Of a DNA stretch of 64,000 nucleotides, positions 1 through 20,883 are shown one piece after another. This DNA is from a virus. The stretch covers positions 325-64,324 of IMG/VR virus record IMGVR_UViG_3300009084_000003; one strand, written 5' to 3'. The notes beneath the pieces are model-generated. The model was not told the origin of the DNA and searched no databases. It saw only the letters and a program-made list of their open reading frames with translations. The position numbers and the translations under genes are program-made. Within the stretch, counting starts at the first letter, position 1; every line of letters begins with the position of its first letter.

Positions 1-87
1 AGCATTCAGACGTTCGAGCCACGAAGCCTGGACGCGCAGAGACTCCTTCAACTCAGCCACCATGCCGAGCAGGTCCGTGGCGCTCAC
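1..87 (-). CDS. 5' part of a hypothetical protein running off the window edge (probable member of the tandem paralog array)
   Basis: GTG at 87 overlaps the stop of 84..488; open frame VSATDLLGMVAELKESLRVQASWLERLNA; same junction repeat as neighbours. Confidence 0.5.
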   Translation of the reverse strand, partial: MSATDLLGMVAELKESLRVQASWLERLNA

Positions 88-811
88 GGCTTCACCGCCC
101 GCAGGTGAGCGATGATTGGGTGGGGGTCGTATTGCCCTGCCTTCACCTGGTCTGTTGTCCAAGCCAGGTGGTCGTAGGTTGTCGCCATCACGGCTCGGGC
201 GATGGCGAGCGCACGGAACACGTCCATGCGGCCGTCCGTGCAGTCGGGGCAGGCTCGTCCGTAGTCGGCTTGGGCGGCTCCCGTTGCGGGTCCGAGGTGG
301 CCGATGCCCTCGCATGTCGGGCAGACGGGCAAGGCGCTGGCGATCTGCTGGATGAAAGCTGCCGCCTCCAATGTCAGCAACCTGGATTGCGGCGAGCCGA
401 ATCTGTCGTGCATCCATTCAGCGACCCCCACCAGATGCGCCACCATGTCGGGCAGGCTTTCGCGTTCGGGCAGGTTCGAGGTGCTCACAGCTTCACCGCC
501 CGCAGGCGTTTGAGGCATTCGTTCCAGCCGTACTCCCACTCGAATTCGACATGCCCATCGCATGGGACTTCCTGAGCGGTTGCTGGGTCCATCACGGCGC
601 GGGCGATGGCGAGCGCACGGAACACGTCCATGCGACCTGACTCGCGACAGTCCTGGCATCGCTCCGCACCCTCAGCGCACGTTTCCCAGCCCTTGCCATC
701 GCACGTCGGGCAGACGGGCAAGGCGTCGATGATGCGCTGGATGAGTGCGTCTTCGTCGGCCGTTAGCGACGCATCAAGGAGTTCCAGCAGCGTGGTCACA
801 GCTTCACCACC
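83..811. repeat. gene-junction direct repeats CTCACRGCTTCACCGCCCGCAGG (83-105, 484-506; partial 796-811)
   Basis: 22/23 identity between the first two copies, read directly. Confidence 0.9.
84..488 (-). CDS. hypothetical protein with DnaJ-type CxxCxGxG zinc finger (paralog B)
   Basis: GTG at 488 overlaps upstream TGA; ALPVCPTCEGIG...CPDC...GRMDVFRALAIARAVM. Confidence 0.7.
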   Translation of the reverse strand: MSTSNLPERESLPDMVAHLVGVAEWMHDRFGSPQSRLLTLEAAAFIQQIASALPVCPTCEGIGHLGPATGAAQADYGRACPDCTDGRMDVFRALAIARAVMATTYDHLAWTTDQVKAGQYDPHPIIAHLRAVKP

Positions 812-982
812 CGACGTGTCCATATCGCCCATCGCCTCGCATGTGCTATGCGGGCGTGGGTCGCCGGGCTCTCGAATGTGGTGACACAAGTGCTTGCCTG
901 TGTGGCCCGAAGTGAGGTCGCATTGGCAGTATGGGGGAGGAAAGCCGTAACGACAGCGACCCGGTGCCTCGTCGTCGTTCAT
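485..982 (-). CDS. hypothetical protein with DnaJ-type zinc finger (paralog A; alternative start GTG 799)
   Basis: ALPVCPTCDGKG...CQDC...GRMDVFRALAIARAVM shared with 84..488. Confidence 0.7.
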   Translation of the reverse strand: MNDDEAPGRCRYGFPPPYCQCDLTSGHTGKHLCHHIREPGDPRPHSTCEAMGDMDTSGGEAVTTLLELLDASLTADEDALIQRIIDALPVCPTCDGKGWETCAEGAERCQDCRESGRMDVFRALAIARAVMDPATAQEVPCDGHVEFEWEYGWNECLKRLRAVKL

Positions 983-2783: not shown

Positions 2784-3743
2784 TTAGGAGACTTGCTTGG
2801 CGTAGCGCGCCCGCATGTAGCTGCGCTGGCGCTCGATGAGCGGCCTCACGGCCGGATCGACTTCGGCCAACGCGTCGACGAACGAATCCATCGTCACCGT
2901 TGGTCGCTTCGTTGGGTGCGGTGCAGTCAGCGTCGACCACGCGGGGCGGATGATCTCACCCCACGGCGAGTCACACCCGACCGGCCACGCCGTCGAGCCC
3001 CGGAGCGAGGCTTCGACGAGTGCAGCGAGAACCGGGGTGGCTTCGACGAACGCCACCGACATCCGGGCTGCGAGTTCGATTCGCCATGCTGAGTTGGTGG
3101 CATTGAACACCCGGAACTCAAGAGTGCCGTACCGGGAGAAGTTCAGGTCAACGTGACGGTCGCGGCCGATTGCCTCGGCCAACGAGTCACCCACGCTCAC
3201 CCGTCCGAGACTCTTCCAGTAGTCGGGTCGGCCCCCTGCGTAGCCGTCGACGACGTAGGAGCGTATCGCTTGCATGAGCGTGGTGTTCATGTCTCGCTTC
3301 TGCTGCGATCGACCAGGCGCGACGATCTCGCTGAAGTACCGTTCGTACGCCAGGTAGGTCGAGGCGACCAGACGGTATGCTTCCCGGTCGCCGCCCGAAA
3401 GCCCGACATGGACATGAAGACCACAACGCGGGCCGGTCGTGGCCCCCGCTGAGGTGGCGGCTTCGGTCAACTGTTTCGTGATTCGCTGGAGGTCATCCCA
3501 GTCGTTGAGGATGCGGCTGATGAACTCGCCGTCGGCTGACGAATCAGTCTGTGCGTGCAGGTCGGGGACAGGTTGATCTCCGCCGTTGTTGTCCCGGACC
3601 CAGCATTGCACACAGTCACAGTGGTATCTGTGGAAGTGGTCCATCTTCACCACGCCTTGACCGTAGAGGTCGCGCAGTGTTGCGTTCGCTCCCGAGGCGT
3701 ACTCCAACTCGAACCCGAACGTGCGGGCTGATGGGTTCGGCAT
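2784..3743 (-). CDS. amidoligase (COOH-NH2 ligase, glutamine synthetase-like fold)
   Basis: FGFELEY, DSSADGEFIS, CGLHVHVG, TLEFRVFNAT motifs. Confidence 0.85.
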   Translation of the reverse strand: MPNPSARTFGFELEYASGANATLRDLYGQGVVKMDHFHRYHCDCVQCWVRDNNGGDQPVPDLHAQTDSSADGEFISRILNDWDDLQRITKQLTEAATSAGATTGPRCGLHVHVGLSGGDREAYRLVASTYLAYERYFSEIVAPGRSQQKRDMNTTLMQAIRSYVVDGYAGGRPDYWKSLGRVSVGDSLAEAIGRDRHVDLNFSRYGTLEFRVFNATNSAWRIELAARMSVAFVEATPVLAALVEASLRGSTAWPVGCDSPWGEIIRPAWSTLTAPHPTKRPTVTMDSFVDALAEVDPAVRPLIERQRSYMRARYAKQVS

Positions 3744-5072
3744 TTATGCTCCTGCCTGGGCGAATCGCCCGGTAAGACGGTTGGGGACCGTCATGGGAAT
3801 GTGGCATGGGTCGAAGTCGATGACCATGTCGCCAGCGGCGGTGACTTCCATCACCGTGCCGGTCAGGTCGAACAACTCGCCCGACCCGACACTGAGCCGC
3901 ACTCCGATTTCGATGCGGTCGCCTTCCTGGCGCTTGCCAGCGGTGTTGCCCGCCGTGATGGCGTAGGGCTGATTCGACTGGATGGGCGTCACGTTGTTGC
4001 GTGCGACCGCCTCGGTCTTGATGGCGTCTGCTCGCTGTTCAGGAGACATCGAGTTGATCTCCCCCGGATACAACGGGCGCACCTTGTGCCAGGTGCCAGC
4101 CGAGTACCGCTGCTGCACCCAACCGTCACCGACGGCGTGCTTGGAACGGATGTCACCCTCAGTCGGGGAGACTCTGGTCTTACCGACGACGACGCCTGCG
4201 GGCGGCGCGCCGCTCCTGACGACTGAGGAGGCTCCGGGCGGTGTTACTTTTCCCGTGACACCACCCCCGCCGCTGTAGCCGGAGGCGTACTCCCAGTCCC
4301 CAGACCACAACCGGGAGCGCTGCTTTGTCGGGTCTTCGACGGCGTGAACGCCGCTGAAGTCGAAGGTCGGGAACTGTTCGAGCTGCCCGTCGGCACCGAC
4401 GCACGCCAGGAACCCCTGAGGCGCTTCGATGACGTCGACTTCCTTGACGTCCTGGGCGATTCCCCCGGCGATGAACGCCGCACCAACAGCCTCTTTCGTC
4501 GAGGCGAACACGGTCGAACCTTCGACGGTGCGGGCGTAGTGCAGGGGGCTTGATCGCCCTCTGGCCATCCACAACGTGCGAGGCTCAATCGCCTGGTCAA
4601 TCCACGCGATTGCCCATGAGGCGTCGATCGCTTTCAACCCGTCAGCGAGCAGCGGGTAGTGGTGAATGGCGGCGAAGATCGCCTCCGAATCCACCTGCGC
4701 CTTGCGGTCCCACTTGAGTGTGTCGAACAGGTCGTCATCGTTGCGGACCATGCCGTTGTGGATGCCGATGATGTTCTCGTACCGAATGGGGTGGTTGTTG
4801 AGAGGATTTATCGGCGAGCCCTGTGTCGACGCTCGGGTGTGGATGAGGGCAGTCTGAGCTGAACGCCCGATGCCTTTCCGCCCGGCGAGGAATACCTCAG
4901 CCTTGCGTGCCTCCTTGCGCAGCTCGACGCGCCCTCGGGGACTGACGGTGCAAACTCCGGTGGCATCTTGGCCACGCTGTTGCATCATCCGTGCGAGAAC
5001 GAGTGTCATGCGTTCGGTGTCGATCTTGCCGAAATCCTTATCGCTGATTACGAATCCAGCTATTCCGCAAAT
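3744..5072 (-). CDS. class II (Ntn) glutamine amidotransferase with C-terminal extension; apparent ATT start
   Basis: CGIAG, RGQDATG, IHTRASTQGS, NNHP, HNGMVRN, VDSEAI; SD AAGGAAGG 8 nt before ATT-TGC. Confidence 0.85.
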   Translation of the reverse strand: MCGIAGFVISDKDFGKIDTERMTLVLARMMQQRGQDATGVCTVSPRGRVELRKEARKAEVFLAGRKGIGRSAQTALIHTRASTQGSPINPLNNHPIRYENIIGIHNGMVRNDDDLFDTLKWDRKAQVDSEAIFAAIHHYPLLADGLKAIDASWAIAWIDQAIEPRTLWMARGRSSPLHYARTVEGSTVFASTKEAVGAAFIAGGIAQDVKEVDVIEAPQGFLACVGADGQLEQFPTFDFSGVHAVEDPTKQRSRLWSGDWEYASGYSGGGGVTGKVTPPGASSVVRSGAPPAGVVVGKTRVSPTEGDIRSKHAVGDGWVQQRYSAGTWHKVRPLYPGEINSMSPEQRADAIKTEAVARNNVTPIQSNQPYAITAGNTAGKRQEGDRIEIGVRLSVGSGELFDLTGTVMEVTAAGDMVIDFDPCHIPMTVPNRLTGRFAQAGA

Positions 5073-5097
5073 GGTGGGTACCTTCCTTTCTTGTTCG

Positions 5098-6024
5098 TCA
5101 GTAGTTGACGAGGTGGTCGTTGAGAAGTTGTGCGGCCTGCTCGAAGCGCGGGCCGACTGGGAGGTAGGCGATGACGGCTCGCTTGAAGTCGTCGATGTGA
5201 GCGGCGTATTCGCCAACCCACCAGCCTCCCGGTCGGGTGGAGTCCATGCGCTCCATGTGTGCGCCCCAGCGGGTCAGGGCGACCGACAGACCCAGGTGCG
5301 CCCATAGGCGCTCAGGGTCACTCGGGGTGTTCCACAGTCGGTGTTCGACGGTGTGGTCGCGTTGCGAAAGCCACGAACCGCTGAAGCCGTAGATGCCGTG
5401 GGTGGGCTTTGTGTTGTAGCCGCGTATCCGCCCGCATCCGCCATCGGCGACGAGGGTCCAATCGTAGGCGGCGTAGGCGGCCTGGATGAGATTGAACCCA
5501 GCACCCGTGAGGTGCTGGACACGGTTGGCGTCGTCGCGGCCGACGTGAATGTGGTTGCCGCACGGGGTGACACCGTCGGGCATCCAATGCCCGTCGGCTT
5601 TCCACACCTCGACGAAAGCAATCCACTCGGCAACCGAATCCATGTCGGTTTCGGAGCGAACGTCGAGGATGCGAGACACCATCTCCACGCCAACCGTGGA
5701 GTCGTTCTGTGTCGCCATCAGCGGCCCACTGCGGGTGTATCTACATTCAACGCACCGGCAGTGGTATTCGTGCGCCCGGCCATGTGCGAGACCCAGGGCG
5801 CTGGCTCGTACGATGTACTCGGGCACACCACCGCTGGATGTCGGTGTGGGTCGCGGGCCGTCGCATTCTTCGCAGCACCAGTCGCCGTCGTCTTCTGTTC
5901 CCCCGTAATAACGGGGGAACATTTCGTACTCGATGCCGAAACGATGAATCGTTTGGATGACATTCGGGTCGGGCTCGTGTCCCCAGATTTTGAGCGCTAA
6001 CGGGGGCGCATCAGTGACTGTCAT
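5098..6024 (-). CDS. second, divergent amidoligase
   Basis: FGIEYE, DSTVGVEMVS, CGNHIHVG, TVEHRLWN motifs. Confidence 0.75.
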   Translation of the reverse strand: MTVTDAPPLALKIWGHEPDPNVIQTIHRFGIEYEMFPRYYGGTEDDGDWCCEECDGPRPTPTSSGGVPEYIVRASALGLAHGRAHEYHCRCVECRYTRSGPLMATQNDSTVGVEMVSRILDVRSETDMDSVAEWIAFVEVWKADGHWMPDGVTPCGNHIHVGRDDANRVQHLTGAGFNLIQAAYAAYDWTLVADGGCGRIRGYNTKPTHGIYGFSGSWLSQRDHTVEHRLWNTPSDPERLWAHLGLSVALTRWGAHMERMDSTRPGGWWVGEYAAHIDDFKRAVIAYLPVGPRFEQAAQLLNDHLVNY

Positions 6025-19525: not shown

Positions 19526-20506
19526 GTGGCAAATCCAGCATTCATTCGTGACGGCGAAGACTGGGACGATGGTTGGTCCCGCGCCCCGCATGGCCTGTGG
19601 ACCCTCGACATCCCCAACGGGGCCAAAGTGCTACTCGGGTGGCTCCATTCGCACTCCGGCGCGTTCCTGAACGGCGTGACGGTGAACCAAGCACGCCGGG
19701 CTGTTGGGTCGTCCTCGATCAAGGTCTGGTTTGAGTCGCTAGAGGCTGCCGGGTTCATCGAGATCGCCCGCAAAGACAACGGCACGCAGTCTCAGTTCAC
19801 CCTCAAGATGGCCCCCTGGAAGGCCCTCATCGGCAGGCCGGACCGCGCCGAAATTAGCGCGGTAACCGCGCCGAAATCGGCGCGCACAGAAGAACACCTA
19901 GAAGATCACTGTTCTTCTTCACTTCGTTCAGAAGAAGAACTCAACGCGGAAAGTCGCGTAGATACTCAAGAGCGCATCACGCCAACGACGATCGCTCGGG
20001 AATACTGGGACTGGCACGTCGAGGATCGCGGCAAGCCACCCACCCAGACCTTCCTTGCCCTCCAGAGCATCGCGAAAGCACTCACGAAAGCTGGGTATCA
20101 ACCCGATGAGATCATTGACGCGATGAAGGTCGCCAAGGTGATGACCGCCAAAGCCCTCACTGACGTTGCGGCCGAGCAGAAGCACAAGCGCGACGACACG
20201 CCGAACACGCAGGCGATCCCAGCAGCGATCGTCAGGGCGTTCGCGAAGTGTGAGTCGTGGTTCGAGCGGAGGGACTTGATGACCGGGGCGTCGCGGACAC
20301 ACTGGATGCGCCTGTGTGCTTCGCAGGTGAACTTCGGCTACGGGCCGGGTGAGACCATGTTGCGCATGGCGGTCGCGCTTCGCACCGGCAACGCGACCAC
20401 CTTCGCTCTCAGTGATGCGAAGGTCGAGCGTTTCAACGGTGAACTCGCCGACTACCCCGACGCGATGGAACGGGCGTACGTCAACCAGGCTTGGAGCGCA
20501 CGATGA
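19526..20506 (+). CDS. phage replication initiator with N-terminal HTH
   Basis: GWSRAP..LW..DIPNGAKVLLGWL...LEAAGFIE; upstream of helicase. Confidence 0.65.
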   Translation: MANPAFIRDGEDWDDGWSRAPHGLWTLDIPNGAKVLLGWLHSHSGAFLNGVTVNQARRAVGSSSIKVWFESLEAAGFIEIARKDNGTQSQFTLKMAPWKALIGRPDRAEISAVTAPKSARTEEHLEDHCSSSLRSEEELNAESRVDTQERITPTTIAREYWDWHVEDRGKPPTQTFLALQSIAKALTKAGYQPDEIIDAMKVAKVMTAKALTDVAAEQKHKRDDTPNTQAIPAAIVRAFAKCESWFERRDLMTGASRTHWMRLCASQVNFGYGPGETMLRMAVALRTGNATTFALSDAKVERFNGELADYPDAMERAYVNQAWSAR

Positions 20507-20883
20507 GCGACCGGGAACTCCTCATGCGTATCACCGCCAAGGATTTCGAGATCACCGCCATCCGCGGTTCGGGGCCGGGAGGACAACACCGCAACAAGGT
20601 GTCGTCGGGCCAGCGGTTCAAGCACAAGGCGTCGGGCGCTGTCGGGGAAGCCACCGACGACCGTAGTCAACTCGCCAACAAGCAGCAGGCGTTCAGGCGC
20701 TGCGTTGCTACCAAAGAGTTCCAGGCGTGGTTTCGTATCGCCGTTGCTGAGGCGCAGGGTCGCCCGAGCACCGAGTCGCTGGTTACTGCCGCGATGAAGC
20801 CGGGCAACATCGACACCCAGATTCTGGTCGACGATCGTTGGGTCACCATCGACCCCTCCCTGCTCGAAGGCGACGAATCGTGA
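20503..20883 (+). CDS. class I release-factor (RF-1/ArfB-like) GGQ peptidyl-tRNA hydrolase domain protein
   Basis: RGSGPGGQHRNKVSSG...RSQLANKQQA. Confidence 0.85.
   Translation: MSDRELLMRITAKDFEITAIRGSGPGGQHRNKVSSGQRFKHKASGAVGEATDDRSQLANKQQAFRRCVATKEFQAWFRIAVAEAQGRPSTESLVTAAMKPGNIDTQILVDDRWVTIDPSLLEGDES

Follow-up and report, generated by a model that had tools for sequence, protein, structure and literature searches.

The class II (Ntn) glutamine amidotransferase (GATase) gene of the window, the whole 64,000-nucleotide stretch of viral DNA that was analysed, almost certainly begins at the rare codon ATT, judging from the position of its catalytic Cys and from the recurrence of ATT or ATC at this site among its relatives. 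As an overall reading we favour, with a confidence somewhat above even, a real ATT initiation in which a weak codon combined with a strong Shine-Dalgarno (SD) sequence would keep the enzyme low compared to its neighbours.

The GATase gene and its start site

The virus record comprises 67,272 bp with 62.7% GC, is classed as linear and estimated to be complete, and the window covers most of it. A protein of its head region matches almost only Mycobacterium, Gordonia, Microbacterium and related phages, and from this we infer an actinobacterial host for what is probably an actinobacterial phage. As shown in Table 1, the GATase gene follows an amidoligase-like gene and precedes an Amidoligase_2 gene, the ATG of which directly abuts the GATase stop codon. 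The upstream gene had no match of its own in the Pfam search, and its product is 28% identical to that of the downstream amidoligase gene (pairwise E=5e-9).

Table 1. Features around the start of the GATase gene, in window coordinates
Feature	Position	Strand	Remarks
Downstream Amidoligase_2 (COOH-NH2 ligase) gene	2784..3743	-	PF12224, E=1e-9
Class II (Ntn) glutamine amidotransferase gene, 442 codons	3744..5072	-	GATase_6, E=1e-15
Catalytic Cys codon TGC	5067..5069	-	Aligns with GlmS Cys1 and position 1 of TIGR01135/TIGR01134
Putative non-canonical start codon ATT	5070..5072	-	ATT/ATC at the same position in 10 other lineages
Strong Shine-Dalgarno AAGAAAGGAAGG	5081..5092	-	8 nt before ATT
6-bp hairpin TCGTCA/TGACGA	5095..5111	-	-6.8 kcal/mol, z=-3.2 versus dinucleotide shuffles
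Upstream amidoligase-like gene, 308 aa	5098..6024	-	ATG start; stop 25 nt before ATT

The frame is open from ATT to its end at position 3744, and Pfam GATase_6 was found above its cut-off in the product, with the GATase domain occupying about residues 1-240, followed by a C-terminal region. No convincing Pfam match was found for the C-terminal 200 residues (window 3744-4350, minus strand), a region whose length varies widely among relatives, with proteins of 291-530 aa overall. In class II GATases, Met removal exposes the catalytic Cys1, and we infer that the Cys encoded here would likewise become Cys1 after removal of fMet. Indeed, Cys2 of the translated frame falls on Cys1 in an alignment with E. 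coli GlmS (PDB 1xff), in agreement with the earlier note, which had placed the catalytic Cys directly after the start. In the same alignment the RG, HTR, HNG and DSE motifs are intact, and R33-G34, H78-T79-R80, H105-N106-G107 and D128 are invariant or nearly so among relatives. The GlmS and PurF equivalog models match residues 1-195 only, not over a full length with the synthase domain, and with 42 and 31 bits, respectively, well below their curated cut-offs of 418 and 350. By its domain and motifs the product is a class II glutamine amidotransferase, with a predicted glutaminase/amide-transfer activity. The GATase of phage SU10 was detected by proteomics with 9 peptides, with no N-terminus given (PMC4281155).

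On the minus strand, the sequence reads AAGAAAGGAAGG (5092-5081), an 8-nt spacer TACCCACC, ATT (5072-5070) and TGC GGA ATA GCT GGA (CGIAG), and re-reading of the coordinates confirmed exactly the succession of SD, ATT and CGIAG that had been noted before, including the strength and spacing of the SD. Within AAGAAAGGAAGG lies a AGAAAGGA core that can pair with the anti-SD at the 3' end of 16S rRNA of the actinobacterial type, the SD duplex having a predicted energy of -13.9 kcal/mol. The sole in-frame canonical start upstream is TTG at 5216, 48 codons up and deep inside the preceding gene, also as previously described, whereas the first ATG in the GATase frame corresponds to residue 22, so that a start there would delete the catalytic Cys. 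The public gene call in the window's genome (P0002) begins further in and lacks this Cys. An SD followed by a near-cognate codon is by itself not rare in a GC-rich genome, as a scan gave hundreds of chance matches, and the evidence rests therefore on the Cys constraint and on conservation. Both support the claim of the earlier note that the GATase initiates at AUU, and we consider it very probable that translation starts at ATT 5072-5070. An 81-codon overlapping ORF (5305..5060) was also considered and rejected, as it is not preceded by an SD and its stop hangs on an ATA codon missing in most relatives.

Conservation of the start codon among relatives

Three other assemblies (ENA, JGI and Logan), 99.98% identical over 4.8-5.7 kb, likewise have ATT, although they possibly derive from the same underlying sample and may share reads. 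Beyond these, ten other lineages, 35-76% identical, have ATT or ATC before the Cys, in every case with an SD at initiation distance: ATT in L003 (71%), L008 (56%), L012 (53%), L253 (52%) and L098 (46%), and ATC in L001 (76%), L254 (48%), L256 (46%), L121 (35%) and L258. With the window, this makes 11 distinct phage lineages, six with ATT and five with ATC. Whether homologs keep ATT, a check that had been proposed, is answered by these lineages, the others having ATG, GTG or TTG in nearly all cases. L098 appears to be the contig of protein P0027.

In a first pass over about 245 loci, the codon before Cys1 was start-capable in nearly all of them (ATG in 179, TTG in 30, GTG in 19, ATT in 12, ATC in 4 and TTT in 1), and ATA, a single transition away from ATG, was never seen before the Cys. 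Among the 120 best database matches, 14 are not called from Met-Cys, all 14 within the top 37, in such a way that these phage GATases look dead. Once the window's own cluster was excluded, DNA look-ups of relatives whose database proteins lack the N-terminal Cys gave ATT or ATC in 8 out of 8 cases; these truncated proteins were picked on purpose, which inflates the share of ATT/ATC among the loci with DNA. ATT accounts for 6 of the 11 starts in the ATT/ATC lineages and for 22 of 260 internal Ile codons of the same genes (binomial p=1e-4, with lineages not fully independent), and the codon is therefore unlike an elongation codon. Codons 2-21, which lie upstream of the first ATG, differ among relatives chiefly at the third codon position, as coding DNA does (90/63/153 differences by position), and, unlike them, the region 5' of the SD contains indels.

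Three side observations came from these searches. The locus with TTT before the GATase Cys, L221 from a Gaiellaceae MAG, has no canonical in-frame start back to a stop about 29 codons up, and its TTT may be an error of the MAG or one more unusual start. An out-of-frame ATG is contained in the GGTGATG extended SD of both L098 and L254, 7 nt before ATT/ATC. A single-sequence viral search gave no match, while alignment-based searches succeeded.

Start codon or processed propeptide

Two explanations would make the ATT something else than a start codon. One is an error of sequencing or assembly, or a recent change of ATG to ATT that inactivated the gene, the alternative that the earlier note had set beside its own reading. 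The three matching assemblies would be compatible with an error if they share reads, but the two closest relatives with DNA (76% and 71%), from unrelated samples, have ATC and ATT, the gene is intact, and ATT/ATC persists down to 35% identity. Conservation has thus effectively refuted this explanation, the chance of which we take as negligible. The other is translation from further upstream, either from TTG 5216 or out of the amidoligase gene through a frameshift or a read-through, to give a precursor that self-cleaves at Ile-Cys. Ntn hydrolases are capable of self-processing, and the PurF of Bacillus has a propeptide that is self-cleaved. Furthermore, one relative, P0004, is called as MATICG, with a canonical in-frame codon three codons before the Ile, which reflects either a start wrongly called within the SD or a short propeptide. 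The GATase frame is also often +1 to that of the upstream gene, with a stop-to-start gap of 1 mod 3 (such as 13, 16, 19 or 25 nt) in 8 of the 11 ATT/ATC lineages versus 15 of 56 canonical loci, a comparison that is post hoc and drawn from related lineages (Fisher p=0.006).

Against a precursor, an in-frame stop is found 1-2 codons ahead of the ATT/ATC of L098 and L254, which excludes a propeptide there, and 8 of the 11 ATT/ATC lineages lack any canonical codon in frame from the upstream stop up to the Cys. In addition, the stop-to-start gaps, of 5-48 nt, represent all three frames across the 11 lineages, so that no single read-through or frameshift event fits. With these stops, the missing canonical codons and the indels before the SD, no translated conserved propeptide was found ahead of the nucleophile, and the residue before the Cys always comes from a start-capable codon with a conserved SD at initiation distance. 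A protein that starts elsewhere and processes itself, raised before as what would overturn the ATT start, can therefore be excluded for at least two of the relatives and finds no support in the rest, and we regard it as very unlikely for the window.

Evolution of the start codon

A tree of the GATase domain with 72 rows was built with a quick IQ-TREE run, the state of one row (P0038) being resolved by a separate DNA look-up. The ATT/ATC starts are concentrated in a supported clade of 32 rows (SH-aLRT 98), in which 11 rows have ATT/ATC or Ile before the Cys, 3 are truncated calls with an undeclared codon and 18 have a canonical start; among the 40 rows outside, only L121 has ATC. We propose this as a new GC-rich, actinophage-like clade in which about 35-45% of the members would use ATT/ATC, a rough frequency because the rows were picked from the best matches and truncated calls were looked up on purpose.

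The ATT/ATC lineages are interleaved with ATG lineages, the AU test rejects a tree with just one ATT/ATC clade (p=7e-52) and the start codon needs 9 state changes on the tree. Even near-identical sisters differ, L012 having ATT and L013 having ATG. On this tree, lineages are seen to have moved repeatedly between ATG and ATT/ATC, and such switching among relatives argues that the ATT of the window is no sequencing error.

The preference seems confined to this gene. GTG starts 17 of 115 other called genes in GATase-bearing phages but is nearly absent at the GATase start, with one case among 59 canonical phage loci with DNA. Across 17 related loci, mostly covering small-gene arms, no other window gene with a homologue needed a non-canonical start, and a genome-wide relaxed initiation was rejected for the comparable genes. 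Avoidance of CATG was also rejected as the cause, as this tetranucleotide is only mildly depleted (0.73) and present at other starts, and a T stands before several of the ATT/ATC starts.

The leader of the GATase gene

In the hairpin of Table 1, the 3' arm carries the upstream stop codon, and 3 nt separate the hairpin from the SD. It is the same in L001 and altered yet paired in L003 and L008, and of the 9 ATT/ATC loci examined, 6 have a predicted stem that overlaps this stop codon. When phage loci were compared, ignoring relatedness, ATT/ATC starts came with a stronger SD, with a median of -12.9 against -9.3 kcal/mol (p=0.002; p=0.1 at GC>55%), and with stronger 5' hairpins, at -10.7 against -2.2 (p=0.0005; p=0.005 at GC>55%). 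Leader hairpins are common in the clade, but they do not follow the codon there, as the ATG members L095 and L097 have strong hairpins and the ATT members L012 and L098 have none; a strict link between hairpin and ATT was thus rejected, and the hairpin is at least in part a feature of the clade. Compensation in ATG lineages by a start-occluding hairpin was unsupported too (occlusion z p=0.18).

Possible role of the weak start codon

In the mechanism that we propose, the strong SD would position the 30S subunit, the initiator fMet-tRNA would decode AUU, and deformylase and Met aminopeptidase would expose Cys1 to give an active Ntn glutaminase. The enzyme would then probably supply ammonia to the flanking amidoligases, a role that, as the Met removal, is deduced, here from the gene order. 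A weak codon behind a strong SD is expected to give a low glutaminase output compared to the ATG-started neighbours, and the host IF3 could discriminate against this AUU-driven output. That AUU tunes down expression, as suggested in the earlier note, stands as the best-supported function, the support coming from measurements of other genes. In S. aureus, non-canonical starts with an extended SD give about 10% of the AUG output (PMC13009471). AUU was the most IF3-sensitive codon tested in vitro and the most depressed by excess IF3 and poor medium, but the AUU-started infC is nonetheless well expressed (PMC5499595), so that low output is not guaranteed. It is also relevant that more than half of the clade members still have a canonical start, which indicates that the weak codon is dispensable. 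On balance, we lean to a lowered dose as the selected effect.

The same data allow a regulatory reading, in which GATase synthesis would sense host IF3, nutrient state or cold, as infC and sigR do. The Streptomyces infC starts at ATC, and IF3 represses the GTC-started sigR in this genus (PMC5472188). AUU is documented to be sensitive to IF3 and to nutrients (PMC5499595, PMC5472188), and a coupling of GATase expression to IF3 is plausible. Only codons of the infC type, discriminated by IF3, occur here, even though these phages often use GTG, another codon that would weaken initiation, and the effect is gene-specific. On the other hand, no IF3 gene was found in the phage genome, and the frequent exchange with ATG is hard to reconcile with an essential regulatory link, so that sensing is in our opinion rather unlikely. 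Equally doubtful is the broader idea that phages have repeatedly and independently wired the glutaminase of an amidoligase cluster to host initiation fidelity through AUU/AUC. If true, it would represent a family-wide translational sensor of phages, of which no description was found in the literature searched, with GATase levels following the IF3, nutrient or cold state during infection. A further possibility is near-neutral drift, with the strong SD letting ATG decay at no cost to ATT/ATC and the codon toggling freely. The 9 changes on the tree, including those between very close sisters such as L012 and L013, and the canonical starts in most of the clade would agree with it. However, drift should also yield ATA, ACG and GTG, all single transitions, whereas the phage loci with DNA had ATT and ATC with no ATA or ACG, and GTG just once. 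Because of this restriction and of its limitation to the GATase gene, selection is favoured over drift, which is improbable also given that ATT/ATC is held across lineages 53-76% identical. Limitation of the glutaminase dose remains the explanation that we prefer, with the same restrained confidence as above, over both sensing and drift.

Relation to known systems

The trait is not new, as GenBank already has a precedent among enzymes of this family, and the window gene taken alone is a case of an ordinary kind. The annotated CDS phi32_83 of coliphage phiEco32 (GenBank EU330206, ABY52884), a class II GATase in a phage ligase cluster, starts at ATT directly before the Cys codon. It differs in being about 30% identical to the window GATase, 676 aa long and from a phage of an enterobacterial host, with a weaker SD, a short upstream ORF in its leader and an ATP-grasp neighbour, while the window clade is GC-rich and actinophage-like, has two amidoligases and uses both ATT and ATC. 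In the cultured Arthrobacter phages Ottawa and Laroye, a class II GATase whose sequence begins with C-G-I-A likewise comes after an amidoligase gene, but it has an ATG start and about 34% identity, and ATG is the GATase start in the three proteobacterial phages checked.

Among bacterial genes, the same codons and a strong SD are found in infC (ATT in E. coli, ATC in Streptomyces; PMC5472188) and in E. coli pcnB (AUU; cited in PMC13009471). The window GATase shares with them an AUU at initiation distance, the lack of a usable canonical start and the conservation of the codon, and discrimination by IF3 would be expected for it too. In contrast to infC, it does not encode IF3 and so forms no autoregulatory loop, and the codon is not fixed in the GATase family. 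Conserved non-canonical starts with a strong or extended SD are also present in S. aureus cvfC1 (AUU) and ccpN (AUA) and in Streptomyces sigR (GTC), with a reduced and sometimes condition-dependent output (PMC13009471, PMC5472188). These are host regulatory genes with experimentally proven starts, whereas the window gene encodes a phage metabolic enzyme whose putative start is supported by comparative evidence.

No paper on non-AUG starts of phage amidotransferases, or on their recurrence, was found in a literature search of incomplete coverage. What is added here is a clade with frequent exchange of ATG, ATT and ATC, close sister pairs, and arguments against both a propeptide and a strict association of hairpin and ATT. 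Few bacterial genes are known to initiate at AUU/AUC, and here a phage gene family converges repeatedly on such starts, which hints that the glutaminase dose matters in phage amidoligase clusters. The near-identical ATG/ATT sisters constitute a natural experiment on the purpose of non-canonical starts. In practical terms, gene callers cut the enzyme short and lose the catalytic Cys, making phage enzymes appear dead that are probably intact.

Other features of the genome

A stand-alone RF-1-domain gene with a GGQ motif (PF00472, E=2e-14) is located at 20503-20883 on the plus strand of the window and was found in relatives L008 and L009 too. It is a translation-related gene in a phage with a non-AUG start, and we take it to resemble the ArfB ribosome-rescue hydrolase. 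In genome G000, TTAA was observed 0 times versus 17 expected, counting both strands, and CTAG and AATT are likewise under-represented, which suggests avoidance of restriction sites. Internal repeats of 30-49 bp occur among the small left-end genes (window 114-961), where ORFs 982..485 and 659..84 share partial similarity. Finally, in the contig of P0005 (SRR20217191), a close relative with a canonical start, antisense HNH endonuclease genes flank the cluster, one just upstream of the GATase gene and the other just after the downstream amidoligase gene.
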